A DNA stretch of 36,592 nucleotides from a virus. Taxonomy: Duplodnaviria > Heunggongvirae > Uroviricota > Caudoviricetes. The stretch lies in IMG/VR virus record IMGVR_UViG_2703718832_000006, one strand, 5' to 3'. The notes under the pieces are model-generated. The model saw only the letters and a program-made list of their open reading frames with translations. It had not been told where the DNA came from and searched no databases. This document shows, one piece after another, positions 23,917-28,146 of this stretch (its first letter is position 1; each line of letters starts with the position of its first letter). Position numbers and translations under genes: made by a program.

Positions 23917-24959
23917 TGGGAAAGAGTAAGAAAAACCGCGCTGCGGCGACGAATCAGCTCAAGCATAAAAGCCAGACTTCAGCCGAAGCATTCAGCTTTG
24001 GCGATCCCGTTCCTGTTCTGGACCGCCGTGAACTGCTGGACTATGTGGAATGCGTACAGATGGACCGCTGGTATGAGCCGCCCGTCAGCTTTGACGGACT
24101 GGCACGAACCTTCCGCGCTGCCGTGCATCACAGCTCACCGATTGCAGTAAAATGCAACATTCTGACCAGTACCTACATCCCTCACCCGCTGCTCAGCCAG
24201 CAGGCTTTTTCACGTTTTGTGCAGGACTATCTGGTATTTGGTAACGCCTACCTGGAGAAACGCACGAACCGCTTCGGTGAAGTTATCGCCCTTGAGCCTG
24301 CTCTGGCAAAATATACCCGACGCGGGTTAGACCTGGATACCTACTGGTTTGTGCAATACGGTATGACAACCCAGCCGTATCAGTTCACGAAAGGCAGCAT
24401 TTTTCATCTGATGGAACCGGACATCAACCAGGAGATCTACGGCCTGCCAGGTTATCTTTCTGCCATTCCGTCAGCCCTGCTCAACGAGTCCGCCACGCTG
24501 TTCCGCCGGAAGTATTACATTAACGGCAGTCATGCAGGCTTCATCATGTACATGACCGATGCCGCGCAGAACCAGGAAGATGTGAACAACCTCCGCAATG
24601 CGATGAAAAGCGCCAAAGGTCCGGGCAACTTCCGCAACCTGTTTATGTACTCGCCTAACGGCAAAAAGGACGGGCTTCAGATTATCCCATTGTCAGAAGT
24701 TGCGGCGAAGGATGAGTTTCTGAATATCAAGAACGTGAGCCGTGATGACATGATGGCTGCGCACCGCGTGCCGCCGCAAATGATGGGGATTATGCCTAAT
24801 AATGTTGGAGGGTTTGGGGATGTGGAAAAAGCCGCGAAGGTTTTTGTCAGAAATGAGTTGGTTCCTTTGCAGAAAAGACTAGTTGAGCTAAACACCTGGA
24901 TAAATCAAAATATTGTGTCATTTAATGACTACATCCTTGACCAAGATAAGGGCATTTAA
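23913..24959 (+). CDS. portal (capsid vertex) protein Q
   Basis: 348-aa ORF overlapping the P stop by 4 nt; P2 gpQ position and size. Confidence 0.9.
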   Translation: MMGKSKKNRAAATNQLKHKSQTSAEAFSFGDPVPVLDRRELLDYVECVQMDRWYEPPVSFDGLARTFRAAVHHSSPIAVKCNILTSTYIPHPLLSQQAFSRFVQDYLVFGNAYLEKRTNRFGEVIALEPALAKYTRRGLDLDTYWFVQYGMTTQPYQFTKGSIFHLMEPDINQEIYGLPGYLSAIPSALLNESATLFRRKYYINGSHAGFIMYMTDAAQNQEDVNNLRNAMKSAKGPGNFRNLFMYSPNGKKDGLQIIPLSEVAAKDEFLNIKNVSRDDMMAAHRVPPQMMGIMPNNVGGFGDVEKAAKVFVRNELVPLQKRLVELNTWINQNIVSFNDYILDQDKGI

Positions 24960-25747
24960 TGCCCTTTTTTATCCTCATAAGCAACGTCATCGTATAATTT
25001 TAAGGCACCTAAATCATGTAATTGCTGCTTGAATTCCTTACTTAAACTAAACCCCTGAAGGAGAGAATATTTTTCAATAAATTTCTTGGCAGGCTTTCCT
25101 ACCGATGAAAAACCATTTAATAGCATCGCGCCAGATTCTATAGAAGATATTTGTGCTCTAACTAATTTCGCATACTTGGTTTTTTCTTTCTCAGTCAAAT
25201 AGTTAGAGTCATTGATATGTTTAAAAATATGGTAAATATTCCTGAAATAATGTCCCACATTCGCAAAATTGTCACCTTCCAGATAAACCATATTAACTGA
25301 AAGCTCTAACCTTTCATCCAAAGGAAGTGAATCATCCACAATATTAAGTAGGTTAAACTTCACTTCGGTAATGTATAATGAAAGAGCCTCCCGTCCTACA
25401 TACACTTTTCCATCTGAATACGTTGTTTTAATTTCTGATAAGTTATCTTTATGAAATCTTAGTAACTCAAATAACACAGACTCGAATGACTGAATAGATG
25501 ACTGCCTAGATGTAGAATATAGTGTGAAACAAACAAGCATGATAGAGATAAAGGCCAGAGCAGGATTCAGTACACCACCAATATAATCGCCAAACTGTCC
25601 CCATTTCTCTACGGAATCACTCCATGAATACATTCCAAATTTACAAACATAGCTAACAAACACTATCAGCATTAAAATAAAAGCCAAAAACAACAGTGAA
25701 TAAATAATGGCATAACGCTTAATATTTCGAAGAATGGCACCACACAT
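24956..25747 (-). CDS. membrane protein with two N-terminal transmembrane helices and a roughly 190-aa soluble C-terminal domain (cargo, function unknown)
   Basis: The track ORF 24956..25813 begins with a non-ATG codon and overlaps the upstream gene; the first ATG (Met 23, at 25747) has an AAGG about 10 nt upstream; two hydrophobic helices (AIIYSLLFLAFILMLIVFV and ALAFISIMLVCFTLY); AT-rich codon usage. Confidence 0.55.
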   Translation of the reverse strand: MCGAILRNIKRYAIIYSLLFLAFILMLIVFVSYVCKFGMYSWSDSVEKWGQFGDYIGGVLNPALAFISIMLVCFTLYSTSRQSSIQSFESVLFELLRFHKDNLSEIKTTYSDGKVYVGREALSLYITEVKFNLLNIVDDSLPLDERLELSVNMVYLEGDNFANVGHYFRNIYHIFKHINDSNYLTEKEKTKYAKLVRAQISSIESGAMLLNGFSSVGKPAKKFIEKYSLLQGFSLSKEFKQQLHDLGALKLYDDVAYEDKKGH

Positions 25748-25758
25748 CTCACAATACC

Positions 25759-26136
25759 TTATATATAATCCATATTTAAATCTATTGTATAAATACCTTT
25801 CCTCGCCACACAAGGAATAGATTTCTTTAAAATTCTAACATTTTTAATTTCCCACACATAATAACCTGGAGACCAAGGCTTATTAAGAGTTGTTTCTTGG
25901 TTTTGTTTTAAGTAATCCTCATATGACCAATTTCTAACTGAAACAAAATCGACAATAGCCATAGCCACCCCATGATCTATATCGCTTTGATTTTTAAGAT
26001 ATTTATCATTCTGAACAAGAATGACGTTTTTTAATGGTATCGTTTCAGGATACCACGACCGTATTTCGATAGATTTAGAACCATTTATAATATTTTCTAC
26101 CGCTGGAGTCAAAATCGATATAGCTTGAAACTTCAT
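25759..26136 (-). CDS. ASCH-domain protein (PUA-like fold)
   Basis: 125-aa ORF with the N-terminal GxKxxExR signature of ASCH domains (GSKSIEIR). Confidence 0.6.
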   Translation of the reverse strand: MKFQAISILTPAVENIINGSKSIEIRSWYPETIPLKNVILVQNDKYLKNQSDIDHGVAMAIVDFVSVRNWSYEDYLKQNQETTLNKPWSPGYYVWEIKNVRILKKSIPCVARKGIYTIDLNMDYI

Positions 26137-26201
26137 GCTCTATCCTCTACTATGCTAAGGCTATAACATTCTAACATAAATAAATAAACGGAGGTAATAC
26201 T

Positions 26202-26747
26202 ATGTTAATTTTCATAGCAGGTGTTCATGGTGTAGGCAAAGGTTACTTGTGTTCATTTGCAAAAGATGATTTCGGGGTAACTCATGTAAGCGCAAGCGAA
26301 CTTATAAAAAATAATTCTAATATTAAATTTGATAACAGTAAGTTAACGGCCACACCTGATAAAAACCAATCAATATTACTTACGGCACTTAATGCATTAA
26401 AGTTAAAGGTATCCAATATTTTATTGGATGGTCATTTTACCTTAATAAATAAAAATGGAGATATTGAAGTTCTCAAGCAAGAAGTATTTGAGGAAATGGG
26501 GCTAGATGGAGTAATTTTAGTTGAGGAGTCTCCCGATACAATTAGAGAACGAATAATGAAACGAGATGGGAGTGATATTACTTATGATTTAAATAAGCTG
26601 ATGGAAGCTGAAAGAGAAAACGCAAAATATGTTACAAATAAAATCAATGTACCATTAATTATCTTAGAATCCCCAACAACAAACGATTTATCTATTGCCC
26701 TAGAAAAACTGGGCATGGTTAAGAAACATGCCCAGACAACATTATAA
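26202..26747 (+). CDS. small P-loop NTPase, kinase-like
   Basis: 181-aa ORF with a Walker A-like loop at the N-terminus (IFIAGVHGVGKGYL) and a hydrophobic-strand aspartate (ILLDGHF); GGAGG RBS before the ATG. Confidence 0.65.
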   Translation: MLIFIAGVHGVGKGYLCSFAKDDFGVTHVSASELIKNNSNIKFDNSKLTATPDKNQSILLTALNALKLKVSNILLDGHFTLINKNGDIEVLKQEVFEEMGLDGVILVEESPDTIRERIMKRDGSDITYDLNKLMEAERENAKYVTNKINVPLIILESPTTNDLSIALEKLGMVKKHAQTTL

Positions 26748-27134
26748 ATAACGATAAGACTGTGGGGCGACGCCGCCGGGAATCAACTCATTTAAGTCGA
26801 CAGGGAATTTATATCTTTTAGGGCTTTTGATGGAAATAGCAAAAGCCTTTTCTCTTTGGTGGAAATAATCTTTAAAAAAAGAATGTGTAATTCCTGCATG
26901 AGCTTTCGTTTTATCCCACAATTCTGAAGGGGATAGAGCAAGAATATCTCCTACTTTAAATTCACCTATTACTTTGCCAACCGGCATCGTTGCGTAAATA
27001 ACTATCGTATCAACATTTTTATTTCTAAAAATATTTTTCCGAAACTCATATTTTTTTTTACCAGAAAGTATACTCTCTGCATACTCTGGCTTAATCGATA
27101 ATAAAACTTTCATCAACACCTCCCTGTAAGACAA
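26742..27134 (-). CDS. ASCH-domain protein (PUA-like fold)
   Basis: 130-aa ORF with the ASCH GxKxxExR signature (SGKKKYEFR); the start may be Met 8 (27113); its stop overlaps the convergent kinase stop by 6 nt. Confidence 0.6.
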   Translation of the reverse strand: MSYREVLMKVLLSIKPEYAESILSGKKKYEFRKNIFRNKNVDTIVIYATMPVGKVIGEFKVGDILALSPSELWDKTKAHAGITHSFFKDYFHQREKAFAISIKSPKRYKFPVDLNELIPGGVAPQSYRYL

Positions 27135-27672
27135 TCTGCTTAAATGCTGAATCAGTTAGTGGTAAAAAACCCCAATAATCACTATTGGTATAACCTGTAA
27201 TATTCATGATTTCATCACGAATAACTCTTTTTTCCAAAGGGAAATTATAAGTAAACCGTATAATTATCGGATAATTTTTTTTCATATATAGAAGCTGTAA
27301 CTCATCTTCATCAAAAACGCTATAAGGTTCACAGTAATTCTTAAATTCCTCATAAGTTAAGAAATCGTGAATATCTTTAATTTCCTGAACCACACACACT
27401 GAAGTTGCAACAGATCTAAACCGAGCTGGACCTTGTCCATCTGAAGTACGATAAATAAGCAAATTATCTCCAGGCTTTAGGCTGGCTACCCCATGCATTT
27501 TTGTTAAGTATACTTTTTCAATACTGTTGGTATGTGATATATCAGCGATGATACCAGCACTCTCATTGTGGAGTTTTGACTCAGGGAAAAGACGTGTATG
27601 CCATGCAGGATAAATACTTAATAAATAATTTCTCCCCTGCAATTTGACTAAGGGATAATTAGCATAGCTCAT
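27091..27672 (-). CDS. hypothetical protein (193 aa), middle gene of the GNAT-ASCH operon
   Basis: ORF packed between the GNAT and ASCH genes with a 3-nt gap upstream and an overlap downstream; no motif I can assign with confidence. Confidence 0.5.
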   Translation of the reverse strand: MSYANYPLVKLQGRNYLLSIYPAWHTRLFPESKLHNESAGIIADISHTNSIEKVYLTKMHGVASLKPGDNLLIYRTSDGQGPARFRSVATSVCVVQEIKDIHDFLTYEEFKNYCEPYSVFDEDELQLLYMKKNYPIIIRFTYNFPLEKRVIRDEIMNITGYTNSDYWGFLPLTDSAFKQIVLQGGVDESFIID

Positions 27673-27675
27673 TTT

Positions 27676-28146
27676 TTACTCCTTCCATACCAAGTTTTTA
27701 AAGTATACACCTTCTTGCCCATTAATCGTAGAAAGATTTTTCCTCGCCTTTAAAACAAAACCATATTTAGTTAATAAGCGAATTAATCCTGAATGCTTAT
27801 CAAATATAGTAACATATACTTCTTTTAGTTTGTTTCTCATAGCAAATTGAAACATAATTCTAATAAAACGCTCTCCAAGTTTGGTTCCATGAGCATCGAT
27901 TTTAAATGTGCCAAGCTTTACTCGCTTCATCTTTGGAAACGTTGGAGTCATATCACTCAACTCTTCATCTTCTATTTTCAAATAGAGAAAACCATCGATT
28001 TCACCTAATTCATTACGTGATACAAACGCCTTATTTTTACCTTTTGAGAGAAACCAAACATCAAATCCTTCATAATCAGCTCTTAGGCTGTTAAAAAACG
28101 GATCTTTTAAATCGATATCACTAAAAAATTTTTCCTCGATAGACAT
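27676..28146 (-). CDS. GNAT-family N-acetyltransferase-like protein
   Basis: 156-aa ORF with a GNAT-like core pattern (HGTKLGERFIRIMFQFA ... LIRLLTKYGF); fold assignment is by eye only. Confidence 0.5.
   Translation of the reverse strand: MSIEEKFFSDIDLKDPFFNSLRADYEGFDVWFLSKGKNKAFVSRNELGEIDGFLYLKIEDEELSDMTPTFPKMKRVKLGTFKIDAHGTKLGERFIRIMFQFAMRNKLKEVYVTIFDKHSGLIRLLTKYGFVLKARKNLSTINGQEGVYFKNLVWKE

Follow-up and report, generated by a model that had tools for sequence, protein, structure and literature searches.

The window, by which we mean the whole stretch of DNA analyzed here (36,592 nucleotides; IMG/VR virus record IMGVR_UViG_2703718832_000006), contains a P2/186-like prophage in which a 3.2 kb island of 32%–36% GC lies within a backbone of 52%–57% GC, between the portal gene and the genes for DinI and a replication endonuclease. 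P2-like phages carry anti-phage cargo at this position. The plus strand of the island carries a gene for a 181-aa protein with an ATG start (26202–26747), named "ATP-binding protein" in RefSeq (WP_000904469.1), which we interpret as an AdkA/AK6-like P-loop phosphotransferase and the accessory third component ("K") of PDC-M11, or GNAT-EVE-ASCH. It is referred to below as the kinase. Its coordinates, start and length, together with the GVHGVGKG loop, match the original prediction for this locus, which also described a 6-nt stop-stop overlap with a convergent ASCH gene. That overlap is real, since the six nucleotides that close the kinase ORF, TTA TAA (26742–26747), when reverse-complemented give the final sense codon and stop codon of the ASCH gene on the minus strand.

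Judged from its sequence, the kinase ORF is a genuine gene rather than a chance ORF, because the 32%–36% GC island is rich in stop codons, the product matches Pfam AAA_17, and homologues exist. The latter reach down to approximately 30% identity, and the family comprises 776 cluster representatives at E ≤1e-30 in a library of 1.84 billion proteins. A strong Shine-Dalgarno sequence (GGAGG, 26190–26194) can be read 7 nt upstream of the ATG. This sequence and a promoter-like TTGAAA-17-TACTAT (26125–26153), found by consensus scan, together span 26125–26194 on the plus strand, at the 65-nt divergent intergenic region separating the kinase from an ASCH-like gene. The promoter-like site is a pattern match only, as the scan gave seven sites, fewer than the mean of 14.7 in shuffled sequence.

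Gene content of the island

The convergent ASCH gene (26742–27134, minus strand; 130 aa from a TTG, or 123 aa from the RefSeq start, an ATG at 27113) encodes PDC-M11B (PADLOC PDLC04425, 2e-49). Its product matches Pfam ASCH (6.2e-09; 36.9 bits against a cut-off of 21.2) and PDB 5gus (E 5.1e-12), and belongs to the same family as ZmASCH (PDB 5GUQ). Two further minus-strand genes correspond to the two halves of PDC-M11A (PADLOC profile PDLC04419). The N-terminal half is a GNAT acetyltransferase of 156 aa (27676–28146; 1.1e-58, positions 11–160 of 357), which also matches PHROG 13728 "acetyltransferase" at 3.9e-52, and the C-terminal half is an EVE-like protein of the PUA superfamily (193 aa, 27091–27672; 5.9e-69, positions 166–357 of 357). 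We considered and rejected the possibilities that the stop between these ORFs is a fresh nonsense mutation or a site of programmed read-through. The split is kept in all enterobacterial versions, all three stop codons are used, and the reading frames of the two ORFs differ at some loci; hence, the arrangement of ORFs is that of a translationally coupled split.

Pfam EVE did not match the 193-aa protein of the window, and was weakly matched by 5 of 36 fused A homologues and by long forms (maximum 23.5 bits, cut-off 23). A PDB profile search with the GNAT-EVE alignment returned GNAT structures and no EVE structure, so the EVE assignment rests on the weak Pfam matches in relatives and on the description of such proteins by Bell et al. 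(BMC Biol 2020, PMC7641849).

On the other side of the kinase, and divergent from it, lies a gene for an ASCH-like protein of 125 aa, here called b2 (25759–26136, minus strand). Its match to Pfam ASCH is below the cut-off (0.0017; 19.5 bits against 21.2), and hhalign aligned it to PDC-M11B with a probability of 51% over 27 columns. The view that the kinase sits between two ASCH-containing operons therefore stands for the gene at 26742–27134, whereas the second "ASCH" is an ASCH protein at motif level only. Downstream of b2 is a gene for a putAbiC-family membrane protein (24956–25813, minus strand; Pfam putAbiC 1.2e-18; 263 aa from the RefSeq start at 25747). This gene is an optional add-on found in some enterobacterial versions only.

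The kinase could conceivably work with the divergent b2/putAbiC pair as a separate abortive-infection module, as the 65-nt divergent region would offer common control of the kinase and b2, and b2 accompanies the kinase in every enterobacterial-type locus seen and is present in every split-A, convergent version of the system encountered. However, most lineages have the kinase without either gene: loci L011–L015, L018–L043 and L143–L189 in our numbering contain the kinase and PDC-M11A/B, with neither b2 nor putAbiC. putAbiC is also missing in L009/L010, L144–L153 and L173, and the fusions described below are to PDC-M11B-type ASCH. We consider this pairing very improbable and rejected it.

Distribution of the cassette

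The island was found in 8 of 5,426 complete E. coli genomes, and every copy was at least 99% identical, making close relatives useless for dissecting it. A megablast search of the island against the phage collection gave no match. More distant homologues, at 71%, 54% and 44% identity, lie in the same six-gene block, carried in Serratia and Enterobacter by P2-like prophages and in Klebsiella by a lambdoid prophage, at its replication/nin region. The presence of the same block at differing prophage sites indicates that the cassette moves as a unit. This enterobacterial prophage version is distinctive in its split GNAT and EVE genes, convergent kinase, extra ASCH-like gene and optional putAbiC gene.

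Linkage of the kinase to PDC-M11

To place the kinase in its wider genomic context, ORFs at loci carrying kinase-family members were scored with HMMs for the island's genes. PDC-M11A (GNAT plus EVE-like) and/or PDC-M11B (ASCH) lay adjacent to the kinase in 107 of 109 loci, and the two loci without such a neighbor were sequence ends. In a species scan (one genome per species, 28 loci with a kinase-family member), PDC-M11A adjoined the kinase in 27 species-representative genomes, the exception being at a contig edge. Both A and B were present in 63 of 66 IMG/VR viral contigs, with the other three cut by the locus end, and in all 15 homologue contexts. Hosts in the species scan included Pseudomonas, Acidovorax, Colwellia, Desulfobulbus, cyanobacteria, Verrucomicrobiota and Saccharibacteria, among others, and the linkage overall spans Proteobacteria, Cyanobacteria, Verrucomicrobiota, Saccharibacteria and Firmicute-like phages.

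The order of the genes varied (A-B-K, K-A-B, A-K-B, B-K-A and convergent), which favors selection on co-occurrence over inherited synteny. Most taxa have the kinase gene pointing the same way as A and B, with stops and starts that overlap. For example, in L011 the kinase is followed co-directionally by a 356-aa protein and then ASCH, while in L013–L015 a 495-aa protein is followed by ASCH and then the kinase. Partners of this type matched the PADLOC models for PDC-M11A (E 1e-134 to 1e-140) and PDC-M11B (E 1e-37 to 1e-52), both of which also match the window's own genes. L009 and L010, the loci of homologues with 38%–41% identity to the kinase, carry no putAbiC gene.

These data bear on the suggestion that the kinase is a stand-alone, independent defense gene, or else an ordinary phage dNMP kinase that landed in the island. 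Its location on the opposite strand, with its own Shine-Dalgarno sequence and promoter-like site, is in keeping with independence, and PHROG 761 "thymidylate kinase" matches it at 1.5e-19 (over profile positions 20–217 of 362 only). Nonetheless, PDC-M11A/B genes stand alongside in 107 of the 109 loci, with sequence ends accounting for the rest; the kinase overlaps the stops and starts of co-directional A/B genes in most taxa; and fusions to ASCH exist. The original prediction's term "stand-alone" is thus contradicted. A common phage dNMP kinase fares no better, since the kinase has no near phage relative in sequence or structure: Pfam Thymidylate_kin did not match the window's kinase, and the viral structure library BFVD held no near relative, its best hit (TM 0.63) being a giant-virus adenylate kinase. 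We regard both forms of this explanation as barely credible.

Linkage in the reverse direction is partial. Of 80 viral PDC-M11A loci, 28 (35%) have the kinase and 65% do not, indicating that the core system works without the kinase and that the kinase is an accessory third subunit. PDC-M11A is a large family (3,366 clusters at E ≤1e-5). When pairwise distances were compared, the kinase tracked A and B (Mantel r 0.50, P 0.001) less closely than A tracked B (r 0.93), as expected of a dedicated but accessory component. A Salmonella lineage, moreover, retains a decayed copy of the kinase without a P-loop. We conclude that the kinase belongs to PDC-M11 as a third component, dedicated but accessory, and that it is obligately linked to PDC-M11A/B across phyla. 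The idea that it is connected to the acetylation module is accordingly supported, so that the original prediction was partly right. For annotation purposes, the gene is a third subunit of PDC-M11 rather than a lone "ATP-binding protein."

Predicted fold and conserved residues of the kinase

The kinase matched Pfam AAA_17 (66.8 bits, cut-off 27) and AAA_18 (35 bits, cut-off 29.4), and its AlphaFold2 model, built with 30 homologues in the alignment, had a pLDDT of 91.1 and a pTM of 0.87. The modelled fold has a three-layer core in which the NMP-binding and LID segments are present. In structure searches it came closest to true, nucleotide-bound NMP kinases, led by an archaeal adenylate kinase, which ranked well above models of zeta-toxin and polynucleotide kinase, two other folds that had been put forward as candidates. 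We rejected zeta-toxin, polynucleotide kinase and phage dNMP kinase as identities for the protein, all of which fell far below archaeal adenylate kinase in the fold searches. The kinase does not conform to the T4 Pnk type, for which one would expect the closest fold match together with a conserved catalytic Asp after strand 2. The proposal that the gene encodes a P-loop kinase was borne out by the AAA_17 score, the predicted NMP-kinase fold and the conservation of ATP-site residues.

Conservation was assessed in an alignment of 164 unique sequences. In the Walker A motif (GVHGVGKG, residues 7–14; 26220–26243, plus strand), G7, H9, G12 and K13 are invariant, with G7, G12 and K13 found in 162–164 of the 164 sequences. 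Residue 14 is S, T or G (Ser/Thr in approximately 70%, G in 48/164). The window's kinase reads GKGY, with no Ser/Thr behind the Lys, a pattern of the enterobacterial subgroup that resembles the GKGT of adenylate kinase. A Walker-B-like LDGHF (residues 75–79; 26424–26438, plus strand) is at least 95% conserved, aligns with the "DTH" of Odinarchaeota adenylate kinase, and corresponds to the "DxH" motif of archaeal adenylate kinases. In the LID-type segment R117-x3-R121-D122 (26550–26567, plus strand), R121 occurs in 163 and R117 in 147 (90%) of the 164 sequences. Positions conserved in at least 95% of the members are G7, H9, G12, K13, S32, I35, K47, N55, Q56, L75, D76, G77, H78, F79, L81, R121 and E137. 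The protein thus has a kinase fold with conserved ATP-site residues, K13, D76 and R121 being invariant or nearly so. As read from the alignment, this amounts to an intact ATP site accompanied by conserved polar residues in the region where NMP kinases bind their acceptor.

Conserved basic residues are few, namely, K13, K47, R117 and R121, plus the mostly basic position 36 (K or R in 136/164). R117 and R121 are the sole conserved arginines. Canonical NMP kinases usually have more of both, and E. coli Adk, for example, binds phosphate through R36, R88, R123, R156 and R167. At position 80, the kinase family has T, C, V or A instead of the DGFPR-type Arg. However, archaeal AdkA likewise lacks a DGFPR-type motif, so the absence of this Arg is not decisive. 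Compared with the archaeal AdkA structures (Aeropyrum pernix 6LN3 and Odinarchaeota 7OWE), the kinase shares 17%–20% identity, has an invariant His in the P-loop where AdkA has Pro, and carries fewer conserved basic residues. NCBIfam adenylate kinase models give it at most 32 bits against cut-offs of at least 152. Moreover, AdkA is a housekeeping enzyme, whereas the kinase is confined to a mobile conflict system.

A conventional NMP kinase, converting AMP, CMP or UMP to the diphosphate and so feeding or draining the nucleotide pool of the system, has to be considered in light of these results. By analogy with viperin-adjacent kinases, such an enzyme might recycle nucleotides released by ASCH or make a substrate for GNAT. 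Consistent with this, a profile search against the PDB aligned the family with UMP/CMP kinase 1qf9 (2.3e-07), in which "SAGDLLR" is paralleled by the kinase motif "SAS-LI-K/R." NCBIfam adenylate, UMP-CMP and cytidylate kinase models match at 1e-7 to 1e-4, and the PADLOC VakA model, on which literature searches yielded nothing of relevance, matches the relative in L011 at 1.1e-09 (the window's kinase at E 0.007, 14.9 bits). On the other hand, no enzyme-specific NCBIfam kinase model passed its cut-off (best 32 bits against 155), Pfam ADK is sub-threshold (24.1 bits against 26.8), the LID is short, no Arg stands at the DGFPR position, and some members lack a basic residue at position 36. A housekeeping-type activity would also leave the confinement to one system and the fusion to ASCH unexplained. 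Hence, we consider a conventional NMP kinase improbable.

ASCH-kinase fusions

ASCH and the kinase form a single ORF in L027 and L036, and a database search with the fused protein recovered 43 clusters (310–342 aa; down to 33% identity), all with an N-terminal ASCH domain and a C-terminal kinase. Pfam detects both domains, and the ASCH is of the PDC-M11B type. AlphaFold2 modelled one fusion with a pLDDT of 90.4, a pTM of 0.87 and a well-ordered linker helix, which suggests that the two domains are held in a fixed arrangement, with the predicted rigidity resting on the pTM. From the recurrence of this fusion, we infer that the unfused kinase also binds the ASCH protein, making PDC-M11B its probable physical partner.

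A partner of this kind brings to mind AK6 (hCINAP, Fap7), an ATPase with the adenylate-kinase fold whose target protein binds RNA. The kinase may similarly be an ATP-driven switch or sensor, in which ATP hydrolysis loads, releases or licenses ASCH or GNAT-EVE, and in a variant of this idea it could report the ATP/AMP state of the cell during infection. The likeness to AK6/hCINAP/Fap7 is one of fold, as no specific sequence kinship was shown and the partner and biological context are unrelated. The NMP-binding region is kept, however, and the invariant polar residues S32, K47, N55 and Q56 suggest a specific small ligand or acceptor. As noted, true NMP kinases in nucleotide-bound form head the list of structural matches. 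A switch of this type is a possible explanation, to which we give a minor share of our confidence, ahead of the other alternatives considered here.

Relation to described systems

Operons of the type (PIN)-GNAT-EVE / ASCH / AAA_17 were reportedly set out by Iyer and colleagues in NAR in 2013. PADLOC-DB lists PDC-M11 as a two-gene candidate system ("PDC" denoting candidate), a definition that omits the kinase. Bell et al. (PMC7641849) report fusions of EVE domains to GNAT, in which a PIN domain often forms the N-terminus, and (PIN)-GNAT-EVE with ASCH and often AAA_17; according to them, beta- and gamma-proteobacterial prophages commonly encode GNAT-EVE proteins, and none of the modules had been experimentally characterized. 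The paper attributes both the first description and the idea of DNA base acetylation to Iyer et al. 2013, and it places AAA_17 proteins probably "in non-essential, regulatory capacities" (PMC7641849). The system studied here corresponds to PDC-M11 and to these operons, and the association was therefore already known in silico. Our literature searches on GNAT/EVE/ASCH defense found no experimental study of the system.

Like the operons of Iyer et al. and Bell et al., the window has GNAT-EVE, ASCH and AAA_17 P-loop proteins in a gamma-proteobacterial prophage. Unlike them, its GNAT and EVE halves are separate coupled genes, its kinase is convergent rather than co-directional, and two further genes are attached, one for another ASCH-like protein and one for a putAbiC membrane protein. 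Variants described by Bell et al. were reproduced among our loci, with GNAT detected in 23 of 36 fused A proteins and a weak PIN_3 at the N-terminus of long A forms. In cyanobacterial A proteins, T5orf172 replaces PIN, and Pseudomonas loci contain an HTH-ASCH variant.

Several results are new here. The AAA_17 protein, labelled "AAA+ ATPase" by Bell et al. 2020, is no AAA+ ATPase but has, according to the model, the fold of an NMP kinase, and its ATP site is conserved. Among the loci examined, the kinase family never occurred outside the PDC-M11 system. ASCH-kinase fusions are common and modelled as rigid, and the ASCH partner belongs to the ZmASCH family. Fold, confinement to the system and fusion to ASCH together single out the ASCH-kinase pair as the first unit to examine. 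GNAT-EVE/ASCH systems are widespread (>3,300 PDC-M11A clusters and about 780 kinase representatives at E ≤1e-30) and recur in prophages and defense neighborhoods.

Possible role of the kinase

The closest characterized relative of the kinase's partner PDC-M11B, though not of the kinase itself, is ZmASCH from Zymomonas mobilis (5GUQ/5GUS; Kim et al. 2017, PMC5615036). Nucleic-acid binding was reported for ZmASCH, as were a weak, Mg-dependent cleavage of ssRNA that prefers pyrimidine-A bonds and the removal of single 5' nucleotides; the RNase assay used 300 nM enzyme and 3 nM RNA, i.e., a 100-fold excess of enzyme (PMC5615036). The protein was examined in isolation, without genomic-context or phage work.

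Taken together, we favor, with a probability of roughly 0.55, a reading in which the gene encodes a phosphotransferase of approximately 20 kDa with an AK6/AdkA fold that is the third component of a GNAT-EVE plus ASCH system and phosphorylates a ligand held or released by ASCH. Our confidence in the substrate itself is lower than in the reading as a whole. In this scheme, the kinase would dock on the ASCH protein and transfer phosphate from ATP to the ligand that ASCH has bound or set free. Given the activities of ZmASCH, the only characterized member of this ASCH family, an RNA 5' end or a released nucleotide would be the most likely target; alternatively, the target would be a modified DNA base or a DNA end. 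When an invading phage's nucleic acid is acted on by the GNAT-EVE acetyltransferase, phosphorylation would serve to complete that action or to gate it. The anti-phage role of the system as a whole is likewise putative. The 65% of viral PDC-M11A loci without the kinase, and the decayed Salmonella copy, point against a central role for the kinase.

Small P-loop kinases acting on nucleic-acid ends or on a modified base are familiar from phage-host conflict, T4 Pnk and 5-hydroxymethyluracil DNA kinase being examples, and DNA-base kinases also occur in thymidine hypermodification pathways. These enzymes resemble the kinase in the type of reaction proposed, which is a functional analogy. A more specific and rather unlikely version of the ASCH-kinase reading is that ASCH reads a modified base or end on phage DNA or RNA, the kinase phosphorylates it, and GNAT-EVE acetylates the same or a neighboring position. 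If true, the ASCH-kinase pair would be a novel type of kinase directed at nucleic acids inside an immune system, and defense would consist of chemically rewriting the invader's nucleic acid rather than of cutting or metabolite depletion. The copy in the E. coli P2-like prophage is small, with five or six genes in the cassette, and its host is tractable.

Gene organization of PDC-M11A and its neighbors

The PDC-M11A component, which combines GNAT and EVE-like domains, is a single fused protein in most lineages, whereas in the window it is divided into two translationally coupled ORFs (27091-28146, minus strand), one for the GNAT half (27676-28146) and one for the EVE-like half (27091-27672). 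The junction sequence (27670-27678) reads ..WKE TAA AAA ATG.., and the upstream ORF carries a GGAG motif within its 3′ end. The split is retained across the enterobacterial versions of the system, with TAA, TGA, or TAG as the stop codon. Moreover, the GNAT and EVE-like ORFs occupy different reading frames in some loci, which rules out both a nonsense mutation and a read-through site at the junction. Hence, the enterobacterial PDC-M11A gene is genuinely split.

In the loci examined, every version of the system with a split PDC-M11A and a convergent arrangement was accompanied by an ASCH-like gene, which in the window encodes 125 aa and lies upstream of a gene for a putAbiC-family membrane protein (24956-26136 for the two genes, minus strand; Pfam putAbiC, 1.2e-18). 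The putAbiC gene likely starts at 25747, giving a product of 263 aa. It was found in only a subset of these versions (absent from L009/L010, L144-L153, and L173), and may be an added membrane effector. A terminator-like hairpin (24948-24966; AAGGGCATTTAATGCCCTT followed by a T-run) lies exactly between the ends of the portal and putAbiC genes. This candidate bidirectional terminator could shield the AT-rich cargo from the late operon of the phage.

The six-gene cassette of the window was also identified in Klebsiella (L001-L003), inside a lambdoid prophage, with a kinase 71% identical to that of the window (26202-26747, plus strand). There, the cassette has the O/P replication genes on one side and the DinI/antiterminator-Q region on the other, unlike in the window, where it occupies the P2 portal/replication-gene position. 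The cassette moves among prophages of unrelated types, and in both settings it has a DinI-like gene nearby.

Variation and apparent erosion of PDC-M11 components

Other loci illustrate further variation in the system. Two PDC-M11 systems occur in tandem in Acidovorax (L020, 4113-8540): one is a short GNAT-EVE and ASCH pair that lacks the kinase and has an extra GNAT-like ORF after it, and the other comprises a long (PIN-type) PDC-M11A with ASCH and kinase genes. In cyanobacteria and an alphaproteobacterium (L034, L038, L039, and L042), the N-terminus of the long PDC-M11A instead carries a T5orf172 (GIY-YIG-like) domain (Pfam 8.1e-06 in L034), where published descriptions of the system place a PIN domain.

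The ASCH protein of the window (26742-27134, minus strand) shares the PADLOC family PDC-M11B with the Zymomonas ASCH protein (PDB 5GUQ/5GUS; 4.7e-25), a weak, ssRNA-specific RNase studied by structure and biochemistry (Kim et al. 2017, PMC5615036). We found no mention in the literature consulted of the Zymomonas protein as a PDC-M11B family member. An HTH_3 domain precedes ASCH in the 275-281-aa PDC-M11B of Pseudomonas and viral contigs (L023, L025, L145, L147, L154, and L155), where, as in the window, the kinase gene is met convergently by a PDC-M11B-PDC-M11A operon. Among viral loci recovered using PDC-M11A as the seed (L044-L123), the median PDC-M11B length was 131 aa with the kinase versus 124 aa without it, although ORF-start calling may account for part of this difference. 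The additional residues may be a kinase-docking extension.

The kinase homolog P0003 of Salmonella enterica (163 aa; L129 and L130; 28 member sequences, 64 contigs) is a decayed copy, in which the N-terminal P-loop is absent and LLDGH is altered to LLGDH. The ASCH gene of L130 is also shortened (81 aa), and the PDC-M11 system appears to be eroding in this lineage.
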